Assembly (NCBI GenBank): GCA_004563595.2
Contig: CP042461.1
Span: forward strand, 540,001 to 572,000
Length of the DNA: 32,000 nt
Reading direction: 5' to 3'
Source of the DNA: Candidatus Saccharimonadota bacterium
Lineage (GTDB): Bacteria > Patescibacteriota > Gracilibacteria > BD1-5 > UBA6164
Shown one piece after another: positions 2,294-30,084 of this stretch. The first letter of the stretch is position 1, and each line of letters opens with the position of its first letter. The notes below the pieces were generated by a model, which saw only the letters and a list, made by a program, of their open reading frames with translations, was not told where the DNA came from and made no database searches. A program made the position numbers and the translations under genes.

Positions 2294-2491
2294 GATCATT
2301 ACTATTAAGTATATAATGCCTAACTTAAGGAATCCTAGAATTATAAAATATTTCTGAGTAAAATCAAGTTTTAGTAGAAAATACTTTTAGTATATCATCC
2401 ATGTATTGACTAAATAATATTAAGTTGACTTATTTGTTAAAATGATTACTTTAGTGCCTGACTATTTTGTCACAGAAAAGGAGAGAGTGAT

Positions 2492-2866
2492 ATGGCTTTA
2501 ATTGTATGTTTGAACCAATCTGGTGGTGAAGGTGATAAAAATGTCTTTGCTAATACAGAAAAACGATTAAGGAGGAAGTCTAAAGGTACTGACAAAGGAC
2601 AATTTAACTATAAAGAAGCTGCAGTTCCACTTTTACAATATAATACTAAAACAGAAAAATTTATTGTAAAAGAAATTGATGTTAATTATACAAAACCTGT
2701 TATGCTTGGAAGTTTCCAGAAAACAGAAGATACAATTACAGTATTGTTATCGGTAAATGATACAAAATGCATAAAAGTGATTGGTAATAGAAAAAAATAT
2801 ACATTCATTTCTGAGGAAATTACAAGTGAACAAGCAGTACTTTATATGCAATCTATCAATACTTAA
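2492..2866 (+). CDS. small hypothetical protein, 124 aa, TGA-free
   Basis: Intact ORF in the track, with a strong SD (aaaaggagagag) 6-8 nt upstream of the ATG. A perfect intrinsic terminator follows directly. All 7 Gly codons are GGN. Confidence 0.7.
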   Translation: MALIVCLNQSGGEGDKNVFANTEKRLRRKSKGTDKGQFNYKEAAVPLLQYNTKTEKFIVKEIDVNYTKPVMLGSFQKTEDTITVLLSVNDTKCIKVIGNRKKYTFISEEITSEQAVLYMQSINT

Positions 2867-2899
2867 TAAAAACCAGGAGGGTTTCCCTCCTGGTTTTTT
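2867..2899. terminator. bidirectional rho-independent terminator
   Basis: aaccaggaggg-ttt-ccctcctggtt is an 11-bp GC-rich stem flanked by an A-run and a T-run. It lies between convergent genes and overlaps the stop of the minus-strand gene at 2898-2900. Confidence 0.85.
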
Positions 2900-4628
2900 A
2901 CTTTCATATTTTTTTTAATATCTCCTGTAATCTTGAATATTTTGGGCTCAAGAATCTCTTAGAATCAACAAAATACTTAATTAAGAACATATCGTGATAC
3001 TTAGAATTTTTATTCCATAAATCAGGAAGTTTTTCAACTCATTTCTTATAAAGATGAATGCTTTCATTCTCAAATCAAAACTTTTCTAATATTTCTCAGC
3101 AGTAGAAGTAATTCTCAACGGTAGGGTAATAAATGATCAAGTTATTACAATCAGATACAAGATTACTTCATTTTACTATTATGGATATAAAATACTTTTC
3201 AGACTGTATTTTCTCTATTTCTCATCACTTCTCTACTTCTCAAATTTGATAAAAGTTATCTGGATTATAGGGGAATATTTCAATCGCTTTGTTATATTCT
3301 TGTTTGTATGCAAGAGTTTCAGATACATAAATTTTGTATGAGTAAAATATATTTATGAGTGCGAAACATGATATTATAATAAAGTAAAAAAGAGGTGGTA
3401 TTAAATGAGTTGTTTTTTTATACTTTGAATTTTCTTTGATAGAATAAATCAGGTATACTATAACAATTAAATAACTTGCTATTGATGCAAAGTTAAAGAG
3501 CAAAAATATACTTCATAAAAAGAGGGAATAGTTATAATGTTTTCTATAGCGGAGTTGCCTTAGTATTATATAATATATGTAGCTAATGAACGCTAAACCT
3601 CATATTCATAGATGTACAAAAAATTGTAAGAATATGTTATGAGGCCTATCTGCTGTAAATCAGATATTTTCAAATATATAGAGATATTCTGATTTGTGTA
3701 TATCAAAAAAATGCGAGAGGTTTTCAAATCATACTCCCAAGGTCAATATTTTTATATCTGAAAATATAATATTTAAAGTAGTATCCCAGATATAAAATCT
3801 AGAAACAAATGAATGTATTTTTTCTGGATAAAACTTTAATATCAAAAGAGCTCATATGATGATAGTTATTATTCAACCAATATTTTTTCATTTTGATGAT
3901 AAGGGGAGAACGCTATATAGTAGGTAACTGATTCATAAAAATATTCAAATAGCACTCTTTGTGAGAATAAGAGTTATAAAAAGAAGTATTCATATTCAAA
4001 GAAAGATAAGCTTCTTTATTTTATTTTTTGTTTTGAGTGTTACGTCAACAACGTAGGGGATAATAAGAATCAAAAATAATGCAACATAGTTTGGGTGTCA
4101 AAAAGTTGAGAGGAGTCTGTTTGAAAGCCCTCAATAATCAAAACTAGGGAAATACAATTCTTTTATTCAAAGGATACTTAGAAGTATAGCTGGCACTATT
4201 ATGGTAATATTTATTTGTTTGAATAGTTTTTTATCAAGAATATTGAATAAAATATAACTTATTCAGATAAGATTATTCCACATTAAAAATGAGTGGGCTT
4301 TTGAATTATTTCAGAAAAATGAGATGAATGGGGATGTTGAGAAATAAGAAGAGATAAGCATGACTAACCAAATAATACTCAGGAACATTATACTATTCTT
4401 TGAAATAAATATTCTTTGTTTGTTTAATATTATTTGGAATCAATATCATAAGATTATGAGACTTGAAATGATATTGAAATACATTACTTTTGTAAACTCA
4501 TAATTTCCAGAAACTCAGAGACTTATATTTATTCAAAAGAGCTCAAGTAAACGAGAATTGATAAGAGGTAGGAATCAAAAAAGGAGTATAATGAGGAACT
4601 GAATTATTTTATGTGATTTTATTGACAT
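2898..4628 (-). CDS. O-antigen ligase (Wzy_C)-like polytopic membrane protein with weakly TPR-like C-terminal extension, ~576 aa
   Basis: Continuous table-25 frame containing track ORF 3240..3503. There are many hydrophobic segments and the Wzy_C-type motif ADRPHNIFLQFFVHLGIGGL. The C-terminal soluble part (AYKQEYNKAIEIFPYNPDNFYQIG..) looks TPR-like. The start at 4628 is the first ATG after an upstream TAA, has no SD, and is uncertain. Confidence 0.72.
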
Positions 4629-4649
4629 ATATGTAGTTATTAGTAAAAT
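4622..4649 (+). promoter_or_regulatory. sigma70-type promoter of cassette gene A1
   Basis: TTGACA (4622-4627), a 16-nt spacer, then TAAAAT (4644-4649). The context attttattgacat..N13..agtaaaata is repeated with identical spacing at 5597-5633. Confidence 0.6.
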
Positions 4650-4690
4650 AATTAAATAAAACTTACTCTTATCATTTTAAGGATATTATT

Positions 4691-5035
4691 ATGACTACAG
4701 TTAATTGAAATATAGTTAATTTTCCAGAAATTACAACTGGTGAAGTCAGTGATTTCATGGAAAATGTAGATCATGAACCAGATAGCCTTAATTGTGAGTT
4801 TATAATTTGGTCGAAAACAGCAAATCTGCTGATTGATGAGATATTAAATGGAGTGAAAATTAACATTAAACTTATTGATCCCTCTGATGATGATGAAATT
4901 GATGAATGTTTGAGTAACGAAAGAAATAAACTGTTAGAGGAATGAGGATACAATTCTATACAATTGACAGGAGATGAAATTAAAGAAATCACTTACAATG
5001 TGAGAAATAATTTTTCTCGTATCAATGCTTGATAA
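4691..5035 (+). CDS. hypothetical acidic protein A1, 114 aa (three in-frame TGA=Gly)
   Basis: The ATG at 4691 is in frame with track ORF 4757..4945. Read-through of TGA extends it to TAA at 5033-5035, and a terminator follows. Confidence 0.6.
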
Positions 5036-5054
5036 AGCATAATTTAGTATATAT

Positions 5055-5084
5055 AAAATCACTTCCTGTAAGTGATTTTTTTTT
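5055..5084 (+). terminator. rho-independent terminator after A1
   Basis: aaaatcactt-cctgt-aagtgatttt followed by a T-run. Confidence 0.75.
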
Positions 5085-5159
5085 AAAATTATATTATGTT
5101 GTTTACATGTATTATATGTAGATGACATCATTGTAACTTTAAATAAAAAAGGAGGATTT

Positions 5160-5528
5160 ATGGAAGAATCAGTATCTCTATCGTATTTTACGAATGGAGT
5201 ACCGAGGGATTTCGAAGAAGCAATGAGTACAATATGGGAGGATAACACTAGTATAAAAGCATTATTGCATGATGGTAATAATGTTACATGGTTTATTCAT
5301 TCCTATTCATGCCAAACCAAAATTGCCAGAATATCTTGTTCTAACCTATTCGGAGAAATCTGCTTGTTAGAAGATTATATTGTAGCAAAAAAGGGGAGGT
5401 ATTTTTCTGTACAACTATCAGAATTACCTAAAAGCTTATTTTATTATATTCATATTTTGGATAAACCAGTCTCGTATTCTCAGGCTGTGAATATGCAAAT
5501 GAATAAAATGATGGAGTCACGTATATAG
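5160..5528 (+). CDS. hypothetical protein B1, 122 aa, TGA-free; paralog of 6160..6522
   Basis: Strong SD aaaaaaggagga. Shares the blocks HSYS/FSYS, ISCSN/VFCEN, LEDYI/LKDYL and GRYFSVQLSELPKSLF / GVYRVFLHELPKNEF with B2. Confidence 0.7.
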   Translation: MEESVSLSYFTNGVPRDFEEAMSTIWEDNTSIKALLHDGNNVTWFIHSYSCQTKIARISCSNLFGEICLLEDYIVAKKGRYFSVQLSELPKSLFYYIHILDKPVSYSQAVNMQMNKMMESRI

Positions 5529-5550
5529 GGGGATTCTTTTAACTAGGAAT

Positions 5551-5578
5551 AGGGCTGAGCAATCAGCCCTACTTTTTT
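5551..5578 (+). terminator. rho-independent terminator after B1
   Basis: agggctga-gcaa-tcagccct followed by a T-run. The core ctgagcaatcag is identical to the core of the terminator at 6561-6595. Confidence 0.8.
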
Positions 5579-5602
5579 GTTTATTTTTTAGTATATATTT
5601 TA

Positions 5603-5630
5603 TTGACATGAATACTGTTTTCAGTAAAAT
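5603..5630 (+). promoter_or_regulatory. sigma70-type promoter of cassette gene A2
   Basis: TTGACA (5603-5608), a 16-nt spacer, then TAAAAT (5625-5630). Flanks are the same as in the A1 promoter. Confidence 0.6.
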
Positions 5631-5665
5631 ATTTGAATATCAATAATATTTTTTTATAAAGAATT

Positions 5666-6064
5666 ATGAATAATATTTGAGCAAACGTTGTACCAGTTAA
5701 TTTTAAGCAAAAAGAAATTGTTGAGTACAGACTTTCAGAGACTACTTATATAGTTGATGCAACAATTTTATTGCCATCGGGGGGGGAAGAAATAATTGAG
5801 AATATTCACTTTATTCCTTTTAAGTGTTTTGTAACTGATGTTTCTTCAGGTGAAGATTATGAAGATGAGGAAAAAAGTGATGTTAAGTATATAGAAGCTA
5901 GGAATTCTGCTTTTATTGCAAAATTAGCAATAAGCAATTTATTACTTGATGCGTCGGCTATTGATATAGATTTAGTAAAATTTTCTCTTCCGTACATTAA
6001 AGACTCTGAAGAGATAACCATAGGACAAACGAAAAAAACTGTTTTATCAATTGTTTCAAAATAA
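5666..6064 (+). CDS. hypothetical acidic protein A2, 132 aa (one in-frame TGA=Gly)
   Basis: The ATG at 5666 is in frame with track ORF 5771..6064, which the track starts at a TTG. The N-terminus MNNIGANVVPVNF resembles the A1 N-terminus MTTVNGNIVNF. Confidence 0.6.
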
Positions 6065-6071
6065 ATGTATA

Positions 6072-6137
6072 AAAAAATCTAATTTTCTTGTTTCTCTTGA
6101 TGTTTTTAGAGATACAAGAATGGTTAGATTTTTTTTA
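6072..6137 (+). terminator. long imperfect hairpin plus T-run (terminator or processing structure) between A2 and B2
   Basis: aaaaaatctaa..cttgtttctct..agagatacaag..ttagatttttttt forms nested arms. It ends about 20 nt before the B2 SD. Confidence 0.5.
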
Positions 6138-6159
6138 ATACCAAAAAAAGGAGTTATCT

Positions 6160-6522
6160 ATGGAGAAAGCAAAGGCTATAGACCTAAGCGTAGTTTTTTT
6201 AGAAACCGCAAGGAAGTATAAGAAAGTAGCCTTATCAAATCCAGACGTATTTGCACAAATTACATTTAGTCCAGATATTACAACGTTTTCTACTATATAT
6301 GTATTTTCATATAGTGAAGAACGTGGAGAGGCTACGGTTTTTTGTGAAAATGCTTCTAATAAGTTGAAGGATTATTTACGGCCTTATGGGAAGTTAGATG
6401 GGGTCTATAGAGTGTTTCTTCATGAGTTACCTAAAAATGAATTTTCTGAACCGAGTCTTATGCGACCATTAAGTTTGTCGAAAAGATTATTGTCAGATCA
6501 TTCAGATCATTTGGTAGCATAA
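6160..6522 (+). CDS. hypothetical protein B2, 120 aa, TGA-free; paralog of 5160..5528
   Basis: Strong SD aaaaaaggag, intact in the track, and similar to B1 (see the B1 entry). Confidence 0.7.
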   Translation: MEKAKAIDLSVVFLETARKYKKVALSNPDVFAQITFSPDITTFSTIYVFSYSEERGEATVFCENASNKLKDYLRPYGKLDGVYRVFLHELPKNEFSEPSLMRPLSLSKRLLSDHSDHLVA

Positions 6523-6560
6523 CAATAACAAAAACAACTTTCAAGTTGTTTACAAAACAA

Positions 6561-6595
6561 AAAGGGACTGAGCAATCAGTCCCTTTTATTTTTAT
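6561..6595. terminator. bidirectional rho-independent terminator (B2 / elp3)
   Basis: aaagggactga-gcaa-tcagtcccttt followed by a T-run. It overlaps the elp3 stop at 6592-6594. Confidence 0.8.
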
Positions 6596-8295
6596 ATATC
6601 TTTTAACATATATTCGCCTTCAAGAATATATCATCTTTTTTCATAGTATCACCTCACTCAAACACCAGCTATTACAGCCATACGTTTATATCCATTTTCT
6701 GAGGCTACTCTTTCTGATTCAGCAATAAGCCTTTTTCAAAAACCTAAGTGTTGTCAAAATGTAGATCCTTTTTCTCAGATACTAAGCTGATCTCAAAAAG
6801 TATGAATTTCTCTTACGATAGCAGCTCATTTAAGCTCTGGGAGTGCATCTGTTATTTCTTTGTTTTCTCCTGGAAGCCTGAGCCTTAATAGACTAAAAAT
6901 AGTTCTATCGCTTGGATCTTCAAATGTCATGAAGTATTCTTTTCCATCAGAAGCTTCATATTCAAAAGTATGAAGAGTAGCTTTTTTGGGATCATTTTTC
7001 CCATCTTTGATTTCCCTATGTCTCACTTCAATAAGTTTTATTCAATCAGCTTCAAGTTTTTTCTCTACTATTTGTCTGAGATTACTGAGATGACTTCATT
7101 CAAGTATTTGAGAAGCTGGTATATCTCTGTAAGTTCTATTGAGTCTGATATATTCAGGTATCATTGCTTCTAAGTCTGCTGTCAGATTTATTAATGTTTC
7201 ATCATCATATGCGGTGAATCATCATTCTTTCCATATATCTGTAAGCTCAGATTTATCAGTTACTACCATTGGATATATTTTGAGTTCATCAGGCCTAAAG
7301 TTCTGGTCATCAAATATTTTTTGAAGAGACTCTCTATCCATATCTGGGTTTGATCCAAGTAGATTTGGCATCATATGCGCAACAACCTTGAACCCTGCAT
7401 CTTTGAGCATTTTTGTTGCAGCTATACTTTCTTTATTTCAGTGTCACCTTTTATTAAGTTCATTTATATCGTCAAAAGTTGTTTGGTATCAAATTTCAAC
7501 TCTCGTAACACCATATCATCTGAGTCTTGCTATTTCTTCAGGGTTTAACCAGTCAGGTCTCGTTTCAATTGCTACTCATATTACTCTACACCTGCTTGTT
7601 TCATTCAGTTTTTTTGCTTCTTCTAAAGTCTTAGAAAGCTTTGCTTTATATGTTTGTTTGATTTTAAAACTCGCAAACCTATCTGTTGAGAGATCAGTTT
7701 TTTCTATATACTCCTTCATCTCATCATAAGTATTGAATGCATCATAGATACCTTTCATAAATGCTTCTTGATACTCTTTTGGATATACTGACCATGTCCC
7801 ACCTATAACTCTTATATCATTTTTTTCAATTTTATGCCCTGTTACCTCTAATGCTCTGAGCCTATTATGAATTTGCATAACAGGGTCAAATTTATTGAGC
7901 TCTGCTCTCATCACAGCTGGTTCATTCGGGATATATGATTTAGGAAGTCATTCAAAGGTAGGACAATATACACATTGACCTGGGCATCAAAAAAACTTCG
8001 TTAATAAGCTGATAACAGTAACCCCTGATAAACTTCTTACTCATCTTTTCCTAATAATCTTTTTGAATTTTAAGTCTTCCTCTGCTTCTCAAGTTGCGAT
8101 GAGTTCGTTATATCTTTCAATAATTTCAATATTTGGGATAGGTTTTGGGAGTTTATGTTTTCAATAAATCTTATTTTTTAATTTATGATAGATATCTCTA
8201 TCTAAAGTTGCTATTTCTTGTAATCAGATTTGAATAAGCTCGTCTATTATTTTTGTCTTTTCTTCACTAGGAAGCCTTAAATTTAAATGCGTCAT
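6592..8295 (-). CDS. elp3: Elp3-family radical SAM + GNAT acetyltransferase (tRNA U34 modification enzyme homolog), 567 aa
   Basis: Radical-SAM cluster motif CPGQCVYCP, then IRVIGGTWSVYPKEYQEAF. The C-terminal GNAT part reads QHLGFGKRLIAESERVASENGYKRMAVIAGVGVRGYYEKRGY. The frame links track ORFs 7576..7914, 7222..7410 and 6826..7026 through TGA codons. Confidence 0.88.
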
Positions 8296-8358
8296 TTTTA
8301 TTATTTAGAGTTATGTTTTCATTAATGCACATTATATGCTAAAAGAATATTTTGCAAT

Positions 8359-8398
8359 AAAAAAACATATAAAAAGTTTAATTTTTATATGTTTTTTT
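8359..8398. terminator. AT-rich hairpin terminator downstream of the pilin gene
   Basis: aaaaacatataaaaa-gtttaat-tttttatatgttttt, a symmetric stem with A and T runs on both sides. Confidence 0.6.
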
Positions 8399-8414
8399 AA
8401 ATTACTTATTTATC

Positions 8415-9722
8415 TTAACGAGGAGTCATTACTGTTGTTTTTGTAACACCGCTATTTAAGGCTTCAGTTATGGTAATAGTACCAGCTGTTTCATCATAAC
8501 GAAGCACTGTTGCTTGGTTATTTATAACATAGGTTCTGTTAAAATCATTTGTATTACAGTTCGTTCTACATGTAAAATAGCCTGGATCTGCATTATTTAA
8601 TAATAGAAATCAATTATTTATTTGATTACAATCAGTATCTAAGTCTCTATATCATGAAACCGTATATTGTGCTTGAGTTATCCAAGGGAAAGTATATACC
8701 ACACTTGTTGTTGTTTCTCCGCACATTGAAGTACTGATAACTGCATCCCAAACAGTATTAACAAAACCAGTATTTGCTAGTGTTATAGATGATACTGTAG
8801 CTTGGTTTTCATCTGGAAGTATAATATCTACATCTCAACCAAAACTATCATTTATTATATGTCATATGAGGTTACTTACTTCTTCATCACTTCATGTATT
8901 CATAGTTAAGAGACCTTGATATACAACATCATTTATTAAATCTGATCAGCTATATACATTTTGCAGGTTTGCTGCAAGGATAATTTGATTCGTAATATCC
9001 TCAAAATCATCAAGAAAAGTTTCTGATACTCATGCGTATACAAGTATATCTTTTCAAGTGAGTCAGAATGAAAATTGTCCCGTACCTGTTAACCTACTTG
9101 TTACACCATCAGAAGGGAGATTTGCATAACCATTAAATGCAAGTCAGAGTTTTTTTATTATTTCTATAATATCAGGGTTTGATATATCAGATCAAATTAT
9201 ACTTGGCATTGCAAGTATAAATGTTGTTCATCATGTACTTGTTTGAATACTTATAGCATTATAGGTTCATGTAATATATGCCAGGAGGTCTCATACAGCA
9301 TTTGCAGAGTTTAATGGAGCGTTTTGGGTAATATTTCCTTGTTCGAGAACTGATCAAATTTCGTATTCTTTTTGTGAACTTGTTACTGAATATACATATT
9401 CGGTATTTAATATGGGATCGATTGGAGTATTTGATAGCTGACTGATATTCGTAGTGACTGAATTTCAGACTGTTCATTGGGTCCAAACGAGTCACCCACT
9501 ATATGTAATAGCCATTCAGTTCGATGGAATTGGATACTTTCAAGTTTTCACAGAAAATAATTCAAGAGAAGTTCTTATATTGTTGATATCACTGATTCTT
9601 ACTGAATCTCTCGCAAGCGAACTATATCACTGTAGACTTATAAAAGCTATAGTTCATAAGATAGCAATTATTGTAATTACTACGATGAGTTCCACAAGTG
9701 TAAATGCTTTTTTACTTTTCAT
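8415..9722 (-). CDS. type IV pilin-like protein with prepilin N-terminal methylation domain and large C-terminal domain, 435 aa
   Basis: The N-terminus MKSKKAFTLVELIVVITIIAILGTIAFISL is the classic class III signal plus hydrophobic helix with Glu5. It is followed by about 400 aa of Ser/Thr/Asn-rich sequence with Cys residues near the C-terminus. Confidence 0.85.
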
Positions 9723-9848
9723 GTTTTCCATATTTTCCTTAAATTATATATAATAAAAGTGCATACGTATGTTAGTATATCTAAAGCCTATTCAAAACAA
9801 AAAACATAATTAATTTTTATTTGCATAATTTTAAAATATAATTATATT

Positions 9849-9876
9849 AATGACTAATTATATACTTTTAGTCATT
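9849..9876. promoter_or_regulatory. perfect inverted repeat, candidate TetR operator
   Basis: AATGACTAA-N10-TTAGTCATT ends 6 nt upstream of the tetR-family ATG, in the pilin/tetR divergent region. Confidence 0.6.
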
Positions 9877-9881
9877 TGGTC

Positions 9882-10508
9882 ATGAATGGGGAAAAAACAA
9901 AAGAAAAACAAATTTATAACTCTGCTGTGAAACTTTTTTGAAAGTTTTGAGTCAAAAGGGTATCAATAGATATGATTGTAAAAGATGCATGAGTTGCAAA
10001 ATGAACTTTTTATATTTATTTTAAAAATAAAGAGACGTTATATGAACAGATTATTGGTGATATATTAGAACATGGAAAGAAAGTTATGTTTCATTTAGAA
10101 AAAGAAATTCCAGATGTAAAGGAAAGGTTTTTCGTTCATATGATTGGGAGTTTAGAATTTTTTAAAAATAATAACATAGTTCTCAACTTAATTAACCATA
10201 ATGAAGACTTTTTCATTTGAAAAATTAACCATGATTATTTATATGGGAATCATATCGCGTTAATGAAAATTCTTCTATGAAATGATTTTAAAGATGAAGA
10301 TTTTGTAAATTTAGTAGCAAATGTAAAATGATTTTTTATAAATGTATTAAACCATCAAGATTGTTTTGAGTCAGAGGAAGAATACAAAGATTTCATACTG
10401 AAATTAGCCTGAGTTATTGTAAATTGATTATTTTCTGATTATAATGCTTTATTAAAAGAGAGATCTTACGATGATATATGAACACACTTTAACAAACTTA
10501 AATCTTAA
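9882..10508 (+). CDS. TetR/AcrR family transcriptional regulator, 208 aa
   Basis: HTH signature IYNSAVKLFGKFGVKRVSIDMIVKDAGVAKGTFYIYFKNKETLY. Several of its Gly residues are TGA (for example 9990-9992 and 10002-10004). Confidence 0.9.
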
Positions 10509-10518
10509 ATATTAGAAT

Positions 10519-15881: not shown

Positions 15882-16043
15882 ATGATTGAAAACAACATTT
15901 GATTTAATCCTAATTCTGAGGCGATGAAAAATTATAAACCAGAAACGAATGCACAGTATCAGGAAAGAAAATTTATAGAAGCAATCGAACATATAGCAAG
16001 AACTGCTAAGAAACCATTACAAGAAATAGAATATAATTCATAG
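15882..16043 (+). CDS. small hypothetical ORF, 53 aa
   Basis: ATG..TAG with one TGA, followed immediately by a 17-bp-stem terminator. The only SD-like aaggag is about 30 nt upstream, so support is weak. Confidence 0.35.
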
Positions 16044-22096: not shown

Positions 22097-22172
22097 GGAT
22101 CCATAGCTCAGTTGGTAGAGCACTCGCCTCTTAAGCGATAGGTCCCGGGATCGTAGCCCGGTGGGTCCACCA
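22097..22172 (+). tRNA. tRNA-Lys (anticodon CTT) with encoded CCA
   Basis: Cloverleaf by hand: acceptor GGATCCA/TGGGTCC, D arm GCTC-AGTTGGTA-GAGC, anticodon arm CTCGC-CTCTTAA-GCGAT, variable loop AGGTC, T arm CCGGG-ATCGTAG-CCCGG, discriminator A, then CCA. Confidence 0.93.
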
Positions 22173-22190
22173 AATAAATAAACCGCATAA

Positions 22191-22238
22191 AATAGCCGTT
22201 TTTAGTTTTAATTAACTAAGAGACGGCTATTTTTATTT
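22191..22238 (+). terminator. long hairpin terminator after the tRNA
   Basis: aatagccgt..ttagtt-ttaatt-aactaa..acggctatt followed by a T-rich run. Confidence 0.6.
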
Positions 22239-22269
22239 TATATATTGGCTTTGTATAAGTAAAAAGTAT

Positions 22270-22285
22270 GATCGTAGCCCGATGG
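22270..22285 (+). repeat. partial duplicate of the tRNA-Lys 3' T-arm (att-like direct repeat)
   Basis: gatcgtagcccgAtgg matches tRNA positions 22149-22164 (gatcgtagcccgGtgg) at 15 of 16 bases, and it is GC-rich in an AT-rich context. Confidence 0.6.
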
Positions 22286-22288
22286 AAC

Positions 22289-22687
22289 TTATGTTGAAAT
22301 ATTTGATTTTTTAAATTCTGAGACTGGTGTAGCTTGATGAAATTTCATTTTCCATTTATTATTACTTTTAGACCAAATTGAAGTTCTTTTTGCATGTCTA
22401 CTTAAAACACCATCTTGATCCAATCTTGCTTCAAGATAATTTAATATAAATAAATCTGGTTTTAGTTCTATGCATGAATAATCTTGAGACCAAATTACGT
22501 ATTCAGTTTTGTGTTCATTTAATAAATCTGCAAGTGTTGAGTCATAAGTATGCGTTGAACCACTATATCAAATTTCAATAAAAGATTCATCTAATAATTC
22601 TTTGAGTTTAGACTGATTGATTCTGTTTTCGTAATTATGTAAAATTATTTCATGTTTTTTAAGTATATCTAATATTTTATTATTCAT
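22289..22687 (-). CDS. DUF4440 / NTF2-like (SnoaL-like) domain protein, 132 aa
   Basis: LLDESFIEIGYSGSTHTYD and the C-terminal RTSIWSKSNNKWKMKFHQATP match the DUF4440 signature (..F.E.G.SG..; RSSIW....W...FHQGTP). Confidence 0.75.
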
Positions 22688-22935
22688 ATATTTTATATTG
22701 ATAATTAATTATATTTCAAATGTATTCAAATTATAAATAACATATTATATGAGAGTGGATTTATTTCAATAATTTCTTTAATTTTTCATAAATTTCAAAA
22801 ACTTCATCCTGATTTCAGGCAATATATTTCAAAGAATAAATTCAGTATAAAACCTTCTGATCTGATTATTGACTTTTCAACAAAAACTATTATATATTAG
22901 TGTAATAGTTTTTTATTTTTTTAACATACTAATCT

Positions 22936-23409
22936 ATGTCTACAAATACCCTGAAAACATCAATCGTAGATGAACATAGTTTATGAGAAAAACCATCTCA
23001 TGTATCCTTTGAATCTTCAGAAAAAAACAAAATTATAAAAAGAATTTTAATTTTGATAGCACAAAAATTTAATGGTGATATCAAGAGGATTTTAAATAAC
23101 AGAGAAATGAATTTCGAGGAATTCTATAGTGCTGTAAGTTGTGATAATTCTAGATTAGCACTTACCTTATCAGCGCTCAAAAAAGACATAATAGATCATT
23201 CAAGGGGAGATTTATTATCATTATTTGAAGGATATAATAATCATGAAATAAATCAAGAGATAAGTGAAATCGTATATTGTGTTACAGTACTATTAGATGA
23301 TAAAGATTCTTTTCTTAGTACTCTTTCTAGATGGGAAGAAGGTGATGAGAGTGATTTTTTAGATATATATGATTTGATACGTAGTTTAATGAGTAAAAAC
23401 TCTGTGTAA
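22936..23409 (+). CDS. hypothetical protein, 157 aa
   Basis: The ATG at 22936 is in frame with track ORF 23053..23409, with one TGA (Gly) in between. A TTGACT..TATATT promoter-like pair lies about 60 nt upstream. Confidence 0.6.
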
Positions 23410-23410
23410 T

Positions 23411-23647
23411 TTAAACCTTACTAATTTGAAAAGCATATATATAGCTAAGAATAACCTTAGTACTCTTCCTAGAGAAATGTGAAATCTTACTAATTTTGAA
23501 TCATTACAAATGGGGTTGAATGAGGAATTATCTCCATTGGATACATTCTATTTTGAAAAATATTCAGATAATGATAATACTAAATGAAACATAAGAATAA
23601 TATGGAATAAATTTACAAAAAAGGTGGAGATAACATTTGATAATTAA
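23411..23647 (+). pseudogene. leucine-rich-repeat protein C-terminal fragment (no credible start)
   Basis: The frame opens only at 23390. NLTNLKSIYIAKNNLSTLPREMGNLTNFESLQM fits the LRR consensus LxxLxLxxNxLxxLPxxIGxLxxLxxL. There is no ATG or SD; a TTG occurs at 23426. Confidence 0.4.
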
Positions 23648-23681
23648 TATAAATAATACAATAAAAATACTGAAAATAAAT

Positions 23682-24896
23682 ATGAAAAAAAACTTACATG
23701 AAGAATTACTTCAATTAATTGAAGCTGAACCTACTAATGAATCAGTATTAGATCTACTATGTCAAATTGATGATAATATTCAAAAAATCATAGAGAGTAG
23801 ATTTCAGTGAAAGAGAAGTGAAAGGTTAGAAGAAAAAATTAACTGAAGTATATTTAAAGCTTTTAAAGATAATGAAACTGGGTACTCTATTAATAATTAT
23901 TTAGATATTATTATTAATAGAGTTGAAAAAATTTTAGGAAATTCTGAAAAAAATATTTCTGAAATTTTAAGTGAATTATGAATATTTGCTCTACATCATT
24001 CTCAAACTCTACTGATAGCTAATGAAAATAAAAATAAATGAGTGATTAAATGAAGTTGAGAGTGATATGTAGAATCATATAATAATGATAAATTAAAATC
24101 TTTATTAGAGATACTAAATTGATTATGAATATATTGAGACGATATTATTTGTCATATTTGAGGGGTAGAAAAAAATATGATGAGAAAATATTGATATATT
24201 TATATTCAAATACCTCAATTAAATAGATCAGTTTTGATTTCTGATGGTTCTTGAGAAAATACCTTTGTAATAAAATGACTCCCAAAGGATGCATATTTTT
24301 TTCAAAGTACCAAGATAGATATTTTTAATGATTTTGAAGTCGATTCTATCCCATATACAAAACGTTGGTGAGAGTTGATATTAGAAAAACTACAAGAAGA
24401 TTTTATACCAAAAATCAAAATGAAAGAAAAAATTTCTATGTTTACCACTTCAGAACTATTAAATATATTTCAGAATGATAAAAGGTACCACCCTGATATA
24501 TTAATGAAATCAAGTGCAAAAAACTTGAAGCAGATAAATATATGATGATATAACCTCACACAGATTGCTAGACTGTTCCATATAAAAGGTGCAGAAAATA
24601 TATTATGAGAAGTAAGACCAGAAAATAAAAAATTACATCTTGCATATTTATTGAAGTCTATCTTTTGAGTTGGTTATGAAAGTATTATGGAGGTTATTAA
24701 TTTGTCTCAATCCCAAGAAAAAGCACCGAAAGAAGCCTCTTGATGGAAGGTTAAATCTCAACAACTAGGATATTTTCCGGAAGTTTTATTATCAAAAACA
24801 CAAGCAGAACTTAAGCTCTGTCGAGTATGTGGTTTTACGTTATCTGAAATAGCATGAGAATTAAAGGTTGCAGATACGTATGGTATCAAGTGATAA
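23682..24896 (+). CDS. N-terminal part (404 aa) of a tandem-repeat HTH-like protein, ending at in-frame TAA 24894-24896
   Basis: ATG at 23682. About 270 aa of unique domain is followed by repeats starting at 24492 and 24777. The TAA sits in the middle of repeat 2. Confidence 0.7.
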
Positions 24897-26357
24897 TATA
24901 ATTATTCTGGTAACAAATACCATTTAGCTTGTTTATTGCAAACTATTTTTTGAAAGTGAGCAGAAGTTATCGATAGTATCATCACAAAATATGAAGAAGA
25001 AGTGTTTAAATCTTGAGATGAATGGAAAGGAATTATTAAGGATGTATATACACCAGAAAATTTTATGGATTTAACTTGAGAGAAGTTTTCAAAAATGATT
25101 GTTAGATCAGGAGAAACAATAATAGATATATGGAAAAAAAAGAATCAAGATGGAAAGAGAATTTTTACATCTCTACATCCGTGAAAATCTATATATAATA
25201 GGGCCTGATTCGCATCAGAAATATATGGAGATATGTATGAATGTATTAATGATGTAATAGTCAGGGAAGATAATAGATTAAATGTTCCTATTGATTGACA
25301 TAATTGGAAAAAAAGTTTTCTATCAGAAGAAATTACTCCAGATATATTGATGAAATTAACAAACGTAAAATTAAGAAAAACTTATGTCTCTTGATATTCT
25401 TTATGAGAAATTGCATGATTTTTAGGAGTAAGAAAAACAAATAATTTAGATAATAAAGTAGAAGTCTATGGATCGAAATATTTTTTAGCATTGCTATGAC
25501 AATTAATATTTTGAATGTGATATGATTGTTTTGATTTTGTTGTAAGTAGGGAAAGAGACTTATGAAGATTTCCAAAAAATATAAGTGAAATTAAAAATTT
25601 AATAATTAAAGAATGATATAATCCAGATACAATTATGGGATTAAGCTTTTGAGATTTTAAGACCGCTCAAGTTGCAGGAATATTGTTCAGTGATATTACG
25701 AGAGTAGTTGATAAAAAAGGAAATCATGTTTTATCTTGTGAACGTCCAACAAAAAATTTATATAGCAGAGCGCTGTTTTGTAAGATAATTTTTTGAGAAT
25801 GACATAAATCTGTAGATCAAAAAATTGAAGATGAAGAAGAAAAATTACTGGCTCCGACTACGAAAGAAGGCTGGGAAAGAGAATTTGTAAAAAAATGATA
25901 TACTCCTGATATGTTATTCTCATATTCTATAATACAAATTGAAGAAATAAGGATTTGTGGTTTTAGTTTAGGAGAATTATGATCACAATTTGAGATAAAA
26001 AAGGTATACGGTATTTCAGGAAATTCAAATCCATCAAAGAATAAATATAATTTAGCATGTTTACTTTTGTTAATTTTTTGAGGGTGATATCAAAAAATTG
26101 ATAGAATATTTTATAGTATAGATGATTGGAAGAATGAATTTGAAAAAATATGATATTCGAAAGAACATATTTATTGATTATCAGAAGATAATATAAAAGG
26201 TATAAAAATATGCTGATTGTCTTTTTGAGATATTGCATTGTTATTACAAGTAAAAAAATATTTTGGGTATAAAGAAAAATCAAATTTTTATAACAAAAAG
26301 AAACACCTACCTTATTTATTAGATTTTATTTGATTAAGGCAGGGGGAATTAAATTAG
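24897..26357 (+). pseudogene. continuation (486 codons) of the same repeat protein after the in-frame TAA; no start of its own at the junction
   Basis: Same frame, open to TAG at 26355-26357 under table 25. Repeat homology continues straight across the stop: YGIKG*YNYSGNKYHLACLL versus YGISGNSNPSKNKYNLACLL in repeat 6. The first in-frame ATG is only at 25065. Confidence 0.65.
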
Positions 26358-26560
26358 AATCAACAGAATTAATATATTATTTATATTCATTCAGATAAAA
26401 AAATAATAAATTCAAAATCTCCTCAGTCCGTTGTTTTATAATCATTAGATTTAAGAGTAGAAGAAAAATCAATTTGAAAATCACCAAGACCTTTTTTTGT
26501 TATATTCTATTCAAAATAGAAGTACTTTTATTATCATCTAAATAATTATTCATTTTCACT

Positions 26561-26593
26561 AAAAAAGACTAGATTAATTTCTAGTCTTTTTTT
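26561..26593. terminator. bidirectional terminator
   Basis: aaaagactaga-ttaatt-tctagtctttt with an A-run and a T-run, between convergent genes. Confidence 0.8.
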
Positions 26594-26617
26594 AATCAGG
26601 TCTGGATGAGAATAAAA

Positions 26618-26947
26618 TTAAATATTTTTTTCTAAAATTCTAAATTCTATTTTCCCACCTTTATGTAATTGAATAATACATTGAGGCTCCTGTTCAGTTT
26701 TTATTTCTGCAAAAGCATCTATTATGACCTTTTTTGCACCGTCTAAAGTATTTACCTTTATAGTATATTTTGGATTTCCTATAAAATTTACTTTAAACTC
26801 TTTTGCTATAGATCTTACATGTTGTAATATATCTTCATCACTTGGGATATCATACTCTTCTTCACAAGTAAAAGATATACTCTTTAATTTATAGCGTTTA
26901 TTTAAATCTCTCAAACTGAGAGAACAAAGGATTGTACTAGGAATCAT
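26618..26947 (-). CDS. small hypothetical protein, 109 aa, TGA-free
   Basis: Intact in the track. SD-like aagga lies 7 nt upstream and a terminator lies downstream. Confidence 0.6.
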   Translation of the reverse strand: MIPSTILCSLSLRDLNKRYKLKSISFTCEEEYDIPSDEDILQHVRSIAKEFKVNFIGNPKYTIKVNTLDGAKKVIIDAFAEIKTEQEPQCIIQLHKGGKIEFRILEKNI

Positions 26948-27084
26948 AGATTGTCCTTATTTGTTTCGGGATAACTATTTTGGTTACCTAACTTTAATAT
27001 ATATCAAAATTATACAATGTCAAAAAAAGACTCACTTGATGTAGATTAGTCAAGAACATAAAGTTTTAAAGGAGAAGTACACTT

Positions 27085-27159
27085 ATGTATAAGTGCAGCG
27101 TTTGCGGATATCGTGAAGAAGATGTATTTAATAATGGGGTTGGGAGTACACATATGTAA
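27085..27159 (+). CDS. 24-aa mini-ORF resembling a rubredoxin N-terminal knuckle (possible remnant)
   Basis: Strong SD aaaggaga. MYKCSVCGYREEDVFNNGVGSTHM can be compared with the rubredoxin N-terminus MKKYxCxVCGYIYxPExGDPDNGVxPGT. The second CPxCG knuckle is absent. Confidence 0.4.
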   Translation: MYKCSVCGYREEDVFNNGVGSTHM

Positions 27160-27226
27160 CTAATCTACCATAAAATGTATGAAGATATAAAACATAAAAA
27201 AATATTCTATATCTAAAAAGGGAGCC

Positions 27227-27415
27227 ATGAAAAAGAAAAACTTTATTGCTAGATTTTTAATCAAAATAAAAGAAGTGAGATTGAATAGAAACTGATGATT
27301 CTGTATTATATGTGCATGAAATAATATAAAAGACAAGCAGTGGTTTATATGGACCCGTTGGAGAAAATTTGAAGATAAAAAAAAGCCCGTTTGGTACGGG
27401 CACTTTAGATCTTAG
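27227..27415 (+). CDS. possible small basic protein, 62 aa (three TGA=Gly)
   Basis: SD aaaaagggag lies 2-3 nt from the ATG. The product contains GGFCIICAG. The 3' end overlaps the terminator of the convergent gene, so this call is uncertain. Confidence 0.35.
27376..27402 (-). terminator. rho-independent terminator of 27424..27693
   Basis: On the minus strand: gcccgt-accaa-acgggct followed by T8. Confidence 0.8.
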
Positions 27416-27423
27416 CTTAACAA

Positions 27424-27693
27424 TTACTTCCCTGTAAAAAGCAAGTATAGTAATGGAAAAGCTATGGTACTAACTATAAAAAGAAGAGAATACATAAAGC
27501 CTTTTGATTGATAAAAACGTGTCCCAAATGAATGTACTCCATGCTTCATAGCATTTTTCATTCTTTTCTCATCTCTCTCATGACTGACTCTTCTGTATTC
27601 TGCTATTTTTGTTCTAATAGCATCACCAGTGTTATCAATATTAGAGGTTTTGTTATTCATGATTCTTCTCTCTATTGTTGAAAGTAAACTCAT
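27424..27693 (-). CDS. small tail-anchored membrane protein, 89 aa, TGA-free
   Basis: Intact in the track. A basic N-terminal part is followed by a single C-terminal TM segment, FMYSLLFIVSTIAFPLLYLLF. An alternative start exists at Met12. Confidence 0.55.
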   Translation of the reverse strand: MSLLSTIERRIMNNKTSNIDNTGDAIRTKIAEYRRVSHERDEKRMKNAMKHGVHSFGTRFYQSKGFMYSLLFIVSTIAFPLLYLLFTGK

Positions 27694-27744
27694 TATATAT
27701 AAGTATTAGCAATATCAAATAAAAAGTGTCAATAAACTTCAGAA

Positions 27745-27776
27745 ATAAAAAAAGACCTAGTTATTCACTAGGCCTA
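27745..27776 (-). terminator. rho-independent terminator of the Cys-rich gene
   Basis: On the minus strand: aggcctag-tgaataa-ctaggtct followed by a T-run. Confidence 0.75.
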
Positions 27777-27803
27777 ATATGTAAGTATTATGATGGTATT
27801 TTA

Positions 27804-27992
27804 TTAACAATCCTCACACAAATCCACACCTAAAATATTTTTAACTGCAGGTTGGGGGCATTCTTCACATGTTTCACTTGTTGGAGTAGTATCTACTTCA
27901 TGACAAGGCTGGCACATACCATCAATAAGATCATCAGGGTCACATATCTCTGGACAACGTGAACATTTAACATTTTTGTTTTCATCAGACAC
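27804..27992 (-). CDS. acidic Cys-rich small protein, 62 aa (four CxxC knuckles plus one extra Cys), TGA-free
   Basis: GTG start with aggag 8 nt upstream. Sequence is VSDENKNVKCSRCPEICDPDDLIDGMCQPCHEVDTTPTSETCEECPQPAVKNILGVDLCEDC. The longer TTG-start version in the track begins inside the promoter. Confidence 0.6.
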   Translation of the reverse strand: MSDENKNVKCSRCPEICDPDDLIDGMCQPCHEVDTTPTSETCEECPQPAVKNILGVDLCEDC

Positions 27993-28019
27993 TATTTTAT
28001 CTCCTATAGGTTGAGAGGA

Positions 28020-28049
28020 TTTATTATATAAAAATAAATTATATGTCAA
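28020..28049 (-). promoter_or_regulatory. promoter of the Cys-rich gene
   Basis: On the minus strand, TTGACA (28049-28044) and TATAAT (28028-23). The spacer is 15 nt, or 17 nt to TAATAA. Confidence 0.4.
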
Positions 28050-28062
28050 TATATATTACAGT

Positions 28063-28758
28063 TTAATAACCATAAAATGGGTCATTTAGAATTCTTTTTT
28101 TAGTGATCTTATTTTCTGTTAAAGTATTTGTTGCTCACTTTATCATATCAAGAGTTCCTGAAATATAAAAATATCATCTATTACTATACTGAAGAGCATA
28201 GTTTTTTATATATTTCGATAATTCTTGTCTCCCAGTTAAATAATGAAGAGTTATTGTATCATTATTTTTTTCTATTTCATTAAACTCTTCCTGAAACAAA
28301 TATCAATCATGTGAAGAGTAGAGAAGTATTACCTCTCTTGATGTATTATGTTTTAGTTTTTCTAAAAAAGCTCTCATAGGTGCGATACCGATTCCTCACG
28401 CTATTAATATAATAGGGGAAGACTGGTCTTGTATTTTAAAGTTTCCAAATGGACCACGTAATTTTATAGTATCTCATTTTTTCATACTCTTTAATTTTGC
28501 TTTGAATTGACTCGGCTTGTTACCGATTTTTGTTGCTACTTTCATAATCCCTTCTTCTGGATTTGATGCAATACTCAATGCTCTCCATCATCTATCTTTT
28601 ATTTTTTCTGTGAGTGAAAAAAATCAATGTTCTCATGTGAACCATTTTGAATTCGGTGCTTTAAAGTCAAATACATAATAATCTCCAAATGGATTCTCAC
28701 TTTTTACAAGCTCTATAATATCGGTTTTAAATACTCATTTATAATCATTTAGTGCCAT
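28063..28758 (-). CDS. FNR-like FAD/NAD(P)-binding oxidoreductase (ferredoxin reductase-type), 231 aa
   Basis: FAD motif RALSIAS (RxYSxxS type), GPFG, and NAD(P)-binding loop ILIAGGIGIAPMRAF, in which the first Gly of GG is TGA. Confidence 0.8.
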
Positions 28759-28846
28759 GGTTTTTTGTTATATTATTAAATGGAAATCTTGTATTATTTC
28801 TTTTATTTGTTAAGATTCACACATATAATATAACCATGGAGTATAG

Positions 28847-28857
28847 TTGACGGTCAA
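28847..28857. promoter_or_regulatory. palindrome TTGACgGTCAA in the merR / reductase divergent region, candidate operator
   Basis: On the minus strand it reads TTGACC, then a 19-nt spacer, then TATATT. A 19-nt spacer is the length typical of MerR-controlled promoters. Confidence 0.35.
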
Positions 28858-28878
28858 TACTTTTTTATAAAAATTATT

Positions 28879-29229
28879 ATGAGGATTTGAGAATTAGTTC
28901 AGAAAACAGGAATTAGTAGGGATACAATTCGTTTCTATGAAAAAAAGTGACTCATTACTTCTTCTGAGTGAAAGGATATTTCTAATAATTATAGAGATTA
29001 TGATGAAGAGAACATAAAGAATATATCGCAAATTCAATTTATGAAAAAGTTATGATTTACTCTCAAAGAATGTGAAGTTTGAATCAGGAAAAGAAAAAAT
29101 AATGAATTTAACCCAGAATCTAATAAAAAATTTATAAAAGAAAGGATTGCACTTATAGATAAACAGATTCAAGAACTTGTTGATATAAGAACTGAGTTTG
29201 AAGTGTTGTATAAAGAGCAATGAAAATAA
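28879..29229 (+). CDS. MerR family transcriptional regulator, 116 aa
   Basis: MRIGELVQKTGISRDTIRFYEKKGLI; the Gly of M-R-I-G-E is TGA at 28888-28890. A coiled-coil dimerisation helix is present, along with a single Cys in ..LKECEV.. Confidence 0.9.
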
Positions 29230-29306
29230 GTATAATCGGATGAGAATGTAAAATGAAATGAACTATTGAGAGAATATCTTAGGATTATAAGTATTTAAAT
29301 AAATAT

Positions 29307-29340
29307 AAAAACGATTACATGGACTGTAATCGTTTTTATT
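29307..29340. terminator. bidirectional terminator (merR / 29356..29883)
   Basis: aaaaacgattaca-tggac-tgtaatcgttttt. Confidence 0.8.
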
Positions 29341-29355
29341 ATACCTAAATGTTTA

Positions 29356-29883
29356 TTAAAGTTCTGCTAAACAAGTTCCTAAAAATGGTATTTTTTTAGA
29401 GCGTGAACACATACAAGTTTGTAGTAATTCACATTCTGTCAGTACCTCACTCCTTAATTGTAATGACATTATCTCCTTATCTGTCCAAAAACAAAAATCA
29501 TCACTTAATTCAAAGCATGTTTTTTGAAGTTTAAATTGTTTTTGATTTAACTCATGGAGCATAGAATTAACTTTTTCTTCTAGCTCATGAACAGTTTTAT
29601 AACATCTGGTCATAATTGGTTCGATTTTTTTTCGAGAGATATTATCGTTATCTGTAAAAAAAAAGTCTAAATCAAAGCAGAATTCTTCTATAAGATTTTG
29701 CTGGGATTCGTAATAATCGTGTGGTTGAAAATGAATTAAGTATATATATCTATCATAAAGAGTAGATAAAACCTTTGTATAATATGTAATTATTCGTTTT
29801 CTTTTTTCTTGTACTTCTGCAACGGTATAAGTTTGTGGATTAGAGAATTGAGAATATGATAGTCTATCAATTGATACTCGCAT
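29356..29883 (-). CDS. hypothetical helical Cys-containing protein, 175 aa, TGA-free, only one Gly
   Basis: Intact in the track. SD gagagg lies 8 nt upstream and a terminator lies downstream. Confidence 0.65.
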   Translation of the reverse strand: MRVSIDRLSYSQFSNPQTYTVAEVQEKRKRIITYYTKVLSTLYDRYIYLIHFQPHDYYESQQNLIEEFCFDLDFFFTDNDNISRKKIEPIMTRCYKTVHELEEKVNSMLHELNQKQFKLQKTCFELSDDFCFWTDKEIMSLQLRSEVLTECELLQTCMCSRSKKIPFLGTCLAEL

Positions 29884-30084
29884 TTTAATTACCTCTCACA
29901 TATACATAGCTTAATGTAATATTATATTATAGTAATAGAATATAAAGTCAATTTTTGTGTGATATATTTAGAAGCTAATGTCTTTTAATGAAAAGAGCTT
30001 TCATTTATATTCTTTGTCTCGGTTGTAATTTTTAGTCAAAGCAATATTGAAAAACCCTGAAATATTAGTATCATTGCAACATCA

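Follow-up and report, generated by a model that had tools for sequence, protein, structure and literature searches.

Small TGA-free genes with Shine-Dalgarno sites among TGA-rich genes without such sites in a Gracilibacteria genome

Two kinds of genes in the window

The DNA analyzed here, in the following called the window, comprises 32,000 nt of contig CP042461.1 (positions 540,001 to 572,000) from the closed 1.34-Mb genome of Candidatus Gracilibacteria bacterium 28_42_T64, from which the release factor 2 gene prfB has been reported to be absent (Sieber et al., 2019; PMC6851277). The window contains two kinds of genes, which differ in the mode of translation start and in the codons used for glycine. 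The native genes start from A-rich, G-poor leaders without a Shine-Dalgarno (SD) motif, and use TGA at about two thirds of their glycines. The second kind is a set of short open reading frames (ORFs) that contain no TGA. These ORFs appear to be organized as small autonomous accessory units, each short lineage-specific ORF being preceded by a sigma-70-like promoter and a canonical SD and followed by a hairpin terminator.

The G+C content of the window is 28.4%. When LigA was translated with TGA masked and compared with E. coli LigA (2owo), about 22 of the 34 TGA positions fell on glycine, 6 on alanine, and none on tryptophan. Because most of these positions fall on glycine and none on tryptophan, TGA encodes glycine (genetic code 25), and all ORF checks were made under code 25 after this assignment. 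With TGA as a sense codon, the window contains 59 stop-to-stop ORFs of at least 100 aa, versus 19 under the standard code (code 11). Window proteins match those of 28_42_T64 exactly, and the closest loci to that of the Elp3-like radical-SAM gene of the window (6592-8295, minus strand) come from metagenome-assembled genomes of Gracilibacteria, in line with the placement of the organism in this group. The sole tRNA in the window is Lys-CTT, and no suppressor tRNA, release factor, or other code-switch gene was found within the window. Among the Elp3 relatives, the code switches sharply between loci L001-L015 and L016-L021: loci with about 65-78% Elp3 identity use TGA as sense, and those at 55-62% identity (38-44% G+C) seem to use the standard code and probably belong to Peregrinibacteria-like organisms.

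A preliminary description of this DNA had listed eight small ORFs without TGA, with GGN as the only type of glycine codon. This holds for 2492..2866 (7 GGN codons), 5160..5528 (4), 6160..6522 (3), 26618..26947 (4), 27085..27159 (3), 27424..27693 (5), 27804..27992 (2), and 29356..29883 (1), that is, for 29 GGN codons versus 0 TGA codons (the ORFs are named below by their first coordinate). The list has to be corrected in that 27804 lies on the minus strand and has a GTG start. In the conserved genes, TGA is indeed the majority glycine codon, as had been stated: it accounts for 68% of the 509 glycine codons of 17 TGA-rich genes, and for five of the first eight in the RND pump (TGA GGT GGA GGG TGA TGA TGA TGA). 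With 0.047 TGA per codon, as in the native genes, the probability of finding none in the 825 codons of the eight ORFs is P = 6e-18. Because the ORFs contain no TGA, they are read identically under codes 11 and 25.

Most of the eight had also been said to carry a strong SD and to be followed by a hairpin terminator, and both statements proved correct. An SD of the AGGAG or GAGG type is present in six of the eight ORFs. AGGAG or GGAGG is located 4-10 nt before the start codon of 2492 (8 nt), 5160 (4-5 nt), 6160 (6 nt), 27085 (10 nt), and 27804 (8 nt), the exceptions being 29356 with GAGAGG, 26618 with a weaker AAGGA, and 27424 without a clear SD. Hairpins are found 3' of seven of the eight (2492, 5160, 6160, 26618, 27424, 27804, and 29356), and two of them are shared with convergent neighbors, that of 2492 with the membrane gene at 2898 and that of 6160 with the Elp3-like gene. 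Conversely, the statement that almost all TGA-containing genes show no SD agrees with the finding that the SD duplex energy is above -5.5 for every TGA-rich gene of the window. A doubled TAA TAA stop terminates three of the eight ORFs.

The preliminary description had cautioned that these ORFs might reflect an ascertainment bias. An unbiased census of code-25 ORFs and the analysis of independent genomes answer this caveat, because both give the same result. In the window, all six SD-led genes are TGA-free, compared with 2 of the 26 other genes (p = 3e-5). The independent set comprised 4 genome and 80 metagenome loci around the Elp3-like gene, 18 of which are clearly code 25. When a gene was regarded as SD-led at a duplex energy of -5.5 or lower, TGA was absent from five of the seven SD-led genes in the independent code-25 loci, versus 8 of the 187 others (p = 1e-5). 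Very strong SDs precede two genes of this set, L007 12358-12885 (0 TGA among 11 glycine codons) and L015 8920-9693 (0 of 15). As the association of SD and TGA absence repeats in independent loci, the two-class pattern is a property of this Gracilibacteria clade and not peculiar to a single window. A strong SD is absent from all 138 well-supported native genes; between positions -22 and -1, G accounts for just 2-9% and A for about 50% of the bases of their leaders, and A is enriched at -3. The 6 kb beyond the right edge of the window contain native-type genes throughout. TGA-poor genes were not significantly enriched for non-conserved genes among the fetched loci (p = 0.23), because the synteny around Elp3 is too limited.

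It is hardly credible that the small ORFs are an artefact, that is, chance or mis-called frames that happen to be open in the standard code and to be preceded by fortuitous purines, and this explanation has largely been excluded. Apart from the ascertainment caveat, it could draw on the weak members of the set, 27085 with its 24 codons and 29356 with its single glycine codon, and on the poor structure predictions. It is contradicted by the census and by the recurrence of the pattern in other genomes. In addition, TGA-free ORFs are more frequent than expected by chance, with 19 standard-code ORFs of at least 100 codons observed versus 1.5 in composition-preserving shuffles. According to a codon model that was trained on native genes and excluded glycine codons, each of the seven testable ORFs has its highest score in its own frame, with scores below those of the native genes. 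Promoters, correctly spaced SDs, and terminators bracket the ORFs, the paralogues 5160 and 6160 have an orthologue that is under purifying selection, and six of the ORFs are annotated in GenBank as hypothetical proteins.

The proteins encoded by the flagged ORFs differ from the native proteins in amino acid composition, with 3.5% versus 6.9% glycine and 3.4% versus 0.7% cysteine. Strong SD motifs usually go along with high translation rates, and the preliminary description had offered, as one explanation, selection against TGA in highly translated genes, in which this codon would be avoided as slow or inaccurate. The absence of TGA from all six SD-led genes of the window fits this proposal, which we nevertheless regard as very improbable. 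The non-glycine codons are not shifted toward a preferred set (p = 0.24), there is no general signal of codon adaptation, and high expression of the flagged genes is not supported. Moreover, the pilin-like gene 8415-9731 and the Clp-type ATPase gene of L015, which are of kinds that tend to be well expressed, are TGA-rich (23 of 36 and 44 of 55 glycine codons, respectively), and neither has a strong SD. The flagged genes are poorly conserved ORFans, not core functions, and instead of having their glycines re-encoded with GGN, they contain half as much glycine. The proteome of a BD1-5 bacterium, in which 97 peptides with UGA-encoded glycine and also 27 ribosomal proteins were detected (PMC4032931), likewise weighs against translational selection.

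The individual TGA-free ORFs outside of the duplicated region described below have the following features. ORF 2492 (plus strand, 124 aa; QFR39097.1, hypothetical protein) has a duplex energy of -9.3, carries AGGAG at 2479-2483, 8 nt before the ATG, and scores best in its own frame. It is followed at 2868..2898 by a perfect 14-bp hairpin (AAAAACCAGGAGGG / CCCTCCTGGTTTTT), an inverted repeat with 100% complementarity, which is predicted to be a bidirectional terminator common to 2492 and the convergent membrane gene 2898-4628. ORF 26618 (minus strand, 109 aa; QFR39116.1; duplex energy -4.8), for which its own frame is also the best, is preceded by the promoter TTGACA-16-TATATT at 27023-26996 and the weak SD AAGGA at 26958-26954; downstream of it, an A/T-extended hairpin, AAAAAAGACTAGA-TTAATT-TCTAGTCTTTTTT, can be read from the sequence at 26561..26592 (minus strand). 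ORF 27085 (plus strand) has AGGAG at 27070-27074 and encodes a CxxC motif; with 24 codons, it is too short to be judged as a gene, and the coding score is uninformative at such a length. ORF 27424 (minus strand, 89 aa) encodes a C-terminal hydrophobic helix, is represented in GenBank by a 78-aa form (QFR39117.1), and has its terminator at 27401-27385 (minus strand). This terminator is located inside the ORF 27227..27415 (plus strand, 62 codons, 3 TGA), which had been named as a possible exception to the rule. The latter ORF is probably spurious and not a gene, as it holds the terminator of 27424, its own frame is not the best-scoring one, and its GGGAG is only 2-3 nt from the ATG. ORF 27804 (minus strand, 62 aa; QFR39118.1) encodes a Cys-rich, zinc-ribbon-like protein, with AGGAG at 28005-28001 and a terminator at 27775-27753 (minus strand). 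The public sources differ on the starts of 27424 (78 or 89 aa) and 27804 (62 or 81 aa), and gene finders appear to treat the gene class of 27424-27693 and 27804-27992 inconsistently. Lastly, ORF 29356 (minus strand, 175 aa; duplex energy -7.2) encodes a Cys-rich, predicted helical protein, and is flanked by GAGAGG at 29897-29892 and by a 15-bp hairpin terminator at 29305..29339 (minus strand). If the start were at 29907, the resulting longer form would have an additional TGA, at codon 4.

Several small genes of the window contain only few TGA codons, and in 4691-5035, 5666-6064, 15882-16043, 22936-23409, and the long form 29356-29907 these are located near the N-terminus (codons 4-17). Some of the start codons may be mis-assigned, or an early TGA may have a role. 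The last 16 nt of tRNA-Lys(CTT) (22149-22164, GATCGTAGCCCGGTGG) are repeated with one mismatch at 22270-22285, 121 nt downstream, and this arrangement (22097-22285) looks like the remnant attachment site of an integrative element. The adjoining genes 22289-22687 and 22936-23409 have one TGA each. Furthermore, 95-2299 and 23682-26357 hold two pairs of neighboring paralogues, CAP-domain-like secreted proteins in one pair and large repeat proteins in the other; all four genes are TGA-rich.

The duplicated unit and its counterpart in a sister species

Two of the SD-led genes, 5160 and 6160, are part of a unit of about 1 kb that is tandemly duplicated at 4616-6614. It comprises a promoter, an acidic TGA-containing gene (A1 and A2), an SD-led TGA-free gene (B1 and B2), and a hairpin. 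The promoters of the two copies are 79% alike and the terminator regions 70%, while the proteins are 26-31% identical or diverged past recognition; B1 (5160) and B2 (6160) are recognizable as paralogues (E = 2e-4).

Gene A1 (4691..5035, plus strand) encodes an acidic protein of 114 aa, contains 3 TGA codons, and has its own promoter, TTGACA-16-TAAAAT at 4622-4649, and only a weak AAGGA. Its product is 36% identical to that of the orthologue in the sister species introduced below, with a ratio of nonsynonymous to synonymous substitutions (dN/dS) of 0.39, and the similarity runs on past an in-frame TGA. A1 is a code-25-dependent neighbor of the TGA-free genes. It ends with TGA TAA in both species. 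A hairpin that can be read at 5057..5084 (plus strand; AATCACTT-CCTGT-AAGTGATT) is followed by TTTTTTT, and, because this hairpin and T-run lie between them, A1 and B1 are separate transcription units. The promoter and 5' leader of B1 (5085..5159, plus strand) include the near-palindrome TTTACATGTATTATATGTAGA and the SD AAGGAGG at 5149-5155. The near-palindrome overlaps the promoter and is operator-like, which suggests that the gene is regulated. B1 itself (plus strand, 122 aa; QFR39100.1) has a duplex energy of -12.2, and its terminator hairpin at 5550..5571 (plus strand) resembles the one after B2 (repeat family D1). In the second copy, A2 (5666..6064, plus strand; 132 aa, acidic) has a single TGA, at codon 5, no SD, and the promoter TTGACA-16-TAAAAT at 5603-5630, a repeat of the A1 promoter (D2). 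B2 (plus strand, 120 aa; QFR39102.1) has AGGAG at 6149-6153 and a duplex energy of -8.8, and shares the bidirectional terminator hairpin at 6560..6587 with the convergent Elp3-like gene. A type II toxin-antitoxin operon was considered for the A/B pairs and rejected, as A1 is followed by a separate terminator and B1 is preceded by a conserved promoter of its own; no toxin or antitoxin family of Pfam, NCBIfam, or PADLOC matched the cassettes.

A full HMMER profile search with 5160 and 6160 against 1.84 billion representatives retrieved the two proteins themselves and one relative, P0009. The latter is encoded on contigs L088-L091 of a sister species, the Elp3 of which shares 90.7% protein identity with that of the window. 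The layout downstream of Elp3 in L088 is the same as in the window, namely A1, B1, A2, B2, and a hairpin. By the Nei-Gojobori method, the synonymous divergence (dS) between the window and L088 is 1.20 for Elp3, 1.35 for A1, and 1.18 for B1, with dN/dS values of 0.05, 0.39, and 0.36, respectively. These values indicate that A1 and B1 are real, vertically inherited, fast-evolving proteins. The promoter and leader of B1 are about 90% identical in the two species over about 75 nt, compared with 55-65% identity of the flanking ORFs at the DNA level, and the SD is AAGGAGG in the window and AAGGAGA in L088. The gene at the B2 position of L088 cannot be aligned with B2 of the window, yet it is also SD-led (AAAGGAGG, GTG start) and TGA-free.

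In L088 (520-600), and also in L089-L091, a 1-nt difference in an A-run places the ATG nearest to the SD of B1 in a different frame from the homologous ORF. The resulting upstream ORF of 20 codons ends in TAATG and thereby overlaps the next in-frame ATG, and this configuration is identical in four independent assemblies. This arrangement suggests either coupling by termination and reinitiation or a slippery homopolymer.

Relatives and possible origin of the small genes

The small ORFs are missing from the 18 code-25 loci with which the window has Elp3, the membrane gene, and the CAP genes in common, the only exception being A1/B1 in L088. They are thus lineage-specific and occupy variable spots between syntenic genes. 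The synteny of the CAP gene and the membrane gene 2898-4628 with Elp3 is kept in several relatives. In four Gracilibacteria genomes (window, L088, L007, and L015), unrelated SD-led TGA-free genes adjoin Elp3, and the 3' flank of this gene therefore appears to be an insertion hot spot. The respective regions are 6522-6592 in the window, 1450-1870 in L088, 11700-12900 in L007, and 8900-9990 in L015.

An analogue of the flagged genes, the SD-led gene of L015, encodes a Peptidase_C39-like lipoprotein, is preceded by a perfect GGGAGG, and its homologues (36-44% identity) are found only on standard-code contigs, the genes of which carry strong SDs. Its G+C content is 26%, compared with 22% for the contig and 37-41% for the standard-code homologues. 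As judged from these sequence comparisons, the gene clearly came from standard-code bacteria, and the restriction of its homologues to standard-code contigs indicates that standard-code genes arrive with an SD and without TGA.

We favor, at about even odds, the interpretation that the flagged ORFs are autonomous accessory genes with ancestors that followed the standard code and used SDs, and that both of their marks are at least partly maintained. The genes would stem from a standard-code, SD-using pool made up of other bacteria and of the TGA-free phages and mobile elements that are known to target Gracilibacteria, and would have been inserted in varying places, for instance on the 3' side of the Elp3-like gene. 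The SD and the absence of TGA would then be two marks of one origin; as joint marks of the same ancestry, they go together without the need for any new mechanism. In the Gracilibacterium, the genes would probably be translated via SD-anti-SD pairing. Both marks are expected to fade slowly, since a GGN codon can become TGA only through GGA and by a G-to-T change. In the 5160/6160 family, they appear to be held by selection and not merely to have escaped loss so far.

The preliminary description had suggested recent acquisition from standard-code donors or phages. Standard-code donors are the best-supported origin, given the lineage-specific distribution, the variable spots, and the L015 analogue. 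That the acquisition was recent is doubtful in view of the host-like codon usage, of B1, which is still TGA-free and has a conserved SD at a dS of about 1.2, and of the searches, which found no phage or plasmid relative. De novo birth in place was also considered and rejected: about 2% TGA codons would be expected in random AT-rich sequence, i.e., about 16 in 817 codons, and none was seen.

The small proteins had no match in Pfam, PHROGs, PADLOC, NCBIfam, or the PDB sequences, and tblastn of the window ORFs retrieved nothing from 50,697 GenBank phage records or from the PLSDB plasmids. The comparison of the TGA-free proteins with phage databases (PHROGs, GenBank phages, and IMG/VR), which had been proposed as a check, thus revealed no phage relative. 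Four scans of IMG/VR for a phage origin gave a lone match between 26618 and a terminase (32 bits, exact 8-mer seed), which is not significant at the scale of the database and was rejected. No integrase, terminase, or capsid gene is present among the window ORFs as far as they are annotated, and no convincing attachment-site repeats were found around the small-ORF clusters. Foldseek yielded no match below E = 0.08 in the PDB; the AlphaFold models, among them that of 29356, were poor, with predicted local distance difference test (pLDDT) values of 54 and 46.

The SD is probably functional in this lineage, as judged indirectly from two observations. Relative to synonymous shuffles, internal SD-like motifs are depleted in the native genes of all code-25 loci, with observed/expected ratios of 0.74-0.87, compared with 0.93-1.03 for their reverse complements; the depletion is strongest for AAGGA (0.74, z = -5.1). 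Together with the conservation of the B1 SD, this depletion favors a working anti-SD. The depletion is a hint that the anti-SD has remained active, even though the native genes of this lineage have no SDs. The window and all fetched loci were devoid of rRNA genes.

Several observations weigh against standard-code ancestry as a full explanation. In the sister phyla Absconditabacteria and Peregrinibacteria, the published 16S tails lack CCUCC (PMC10783764). The synonymous codon usage at amino acids other than glycine is host-like (G = 60 versus a null of 51 +/- 17, p = 0.24), as is the G+C content at third codon positions (GC3; 0.203 versus 0.197), so that the donor must have been equally AT-rich or the genes must be old. 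The searches described above identified no donor, phage, or plasmid homologue for any window ORF, and two large protein searches with concatenated queries returned nothing, not even the query proteins, although the collection contains them, and are thus weak negatives. B1 is shared vertically at a dS of 1.18 and contains TGA in neither species, although in the flanking genes about 39% of the conserved glycines with GGN in one species have TGA in the other. Across both species, the B genes have 0 TGA among 19 glycine codons, versus 11 of 21 in the adjacent A genes (Fisher p of about 1.5e-4), and this contrast is not explained by a simple shared ancestry of the whole cassette. Standard-code ancestry thus leaves the host-like codon usage, the retention in B1, and the A/B contrast not fully explained.

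Some of these points can be read in favor of a different, rather unlikely explanation, namely that selection keeps the genes TGA-free and strong in SD so that they can be translated where decoding of UGA as glycine is unavailable. Two such situations are conceivable: an attacking phage might inactivate tRNA-Gly(UCA) or bring in a release factor that reads UGA, or the genes might be expressed in standard-code cells that the episymbiont contacts or with which it swaps DNA. The adjacent TGA-containing A genes could then be made only in a code-25 cell. B1 remained TGA-free and kept its SD and leader across a dS of about 1.2 despite a fast-evolving protein, the A/B contrast holds in two species, and a different SD-led TGA-free gene occupies the B2 position of the sister species. 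Host-like codons at all amino acids except glycine point to a TGA-specific constraint, and the L015 gene, with a G+C content already near that of its contig, has still not acquired any TGA at its 15 glycines and retains GGGAGG. A unit of promoter, SD, and terminator would, in addition, be expressible by almost any bacterium. These observations argue that the SD and the absence of TGA have been retained in the 5160/6160 family; this is, however, a single orthologous family, the support for maintenance is modest, and B1 taken alone gives a p of about 0.02-0.05. Furthermore, no match to a known defence family was found and no function can be inferred from sequence or fold, mechanisms for transfer or for loss of UGA decoding are undocumented in this lineage, and a common foreign origin accounts for the coupling of SD and TGA absence with no need for new biology. 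An extension of this idea, in which the code difference serves as a switch or lock of expression, such that the TGA-free set would still be made when the reading of UGA as glycine fails or is sabotaged, e.g., by code-11 phages, or in standard-code neighbors, we consider quite doubtful.

Significance and comparison with known systems

Irrespective of the origin of these genes, a canonical SD combined with zero TGA provides a two-mark test for a distinct gene class in code-25 bacteria, of which we found no description as an SD-led TGA-free chromosomal class in the literature searched. The test could be used to map gene flow across the code boundary in the genomes of Gracilibacteria and Absconditabacteria. 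Recoding, both natural and engineered, is often called a barrier to transfer, and the flagged genes illustrate what can pass in the permissive direction and the time for which the marks persist. In practical terms, the starts of such genes may be mis-called by gene finders whose training relied on native starts without an SD. If the marks are indeed maintained by selection, this would be a natural case in which the absence of a codon defines a separately translatable set of genes, and it would bear on the conflict between phages and recoded hosts.

The code-11-compatible phages predicted to infect Gracilibacteria and Absconditabacteria are the closest parallel. According to Liu et al. (2023, mBio; PMC10746230), most predicted Gracilibacteria phages have no in-frame TGA, the authors propose a benefit of code neutrality, and all integrated prophages in these hosts are TGA-rich. 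These phages resemble the window ORFs in lacking in-frame TGA in association with code-25 hosts, so that both codes read them in the same way, and the doubled TAA TAA of three of the eight window ORFs echoes the back-up stops of the phages. In contrast to the phages, the window ORFs are isolated chromosomal one-gene units without phage hallmarks or homologues, and, as TGA-free chromosomal genes, they differ from the TGA-rich prophages described in the same paper. SD usage is not mentioned in the discussion section of that paper (PMC10746230).

Islets of acquired genes, as envisaged by the amelioration model, are similar to the window genes in that they are lineage-specific ORFans at variable positions with an atypical amino acid composition, and the standard-code homologues of the L015 analogue fit into this picture. 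Unlike such islets, the window genes have a host-like GC3 and host-like synonymous codon usage. Their only foreign marks are the absence of TGA, which is a stop codon elsewhere, and an initiation signal that the host's own genes do not use. A further difference is that the 5160/6160 family keeps both marks across speciation.

In SD-poor bacteria, e.g., Bacteroidota, A-rich leaders dominate and few SD-led genes are kept. The A-rich, G-depleted native leaders and the handful of genes with a canonical SD resemble this situation. However, the SD-led minority of SD-poor bacteria is not tied to codon reassignment, whereas here the SD-led minority is exactly the TGA-free minority.

Finally, the timing of gene expression in stop-codon-recoded phages reportedly relies on code differences (Borges et al. 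and Ivanova et al.). The likeness is that a reassigned stop codon splits the genes according to whether they can be translated in a given decoding state. In the window, the direction is reversed, as it is the host that is recoded and a host-resident minority of genes that is code-neutral.

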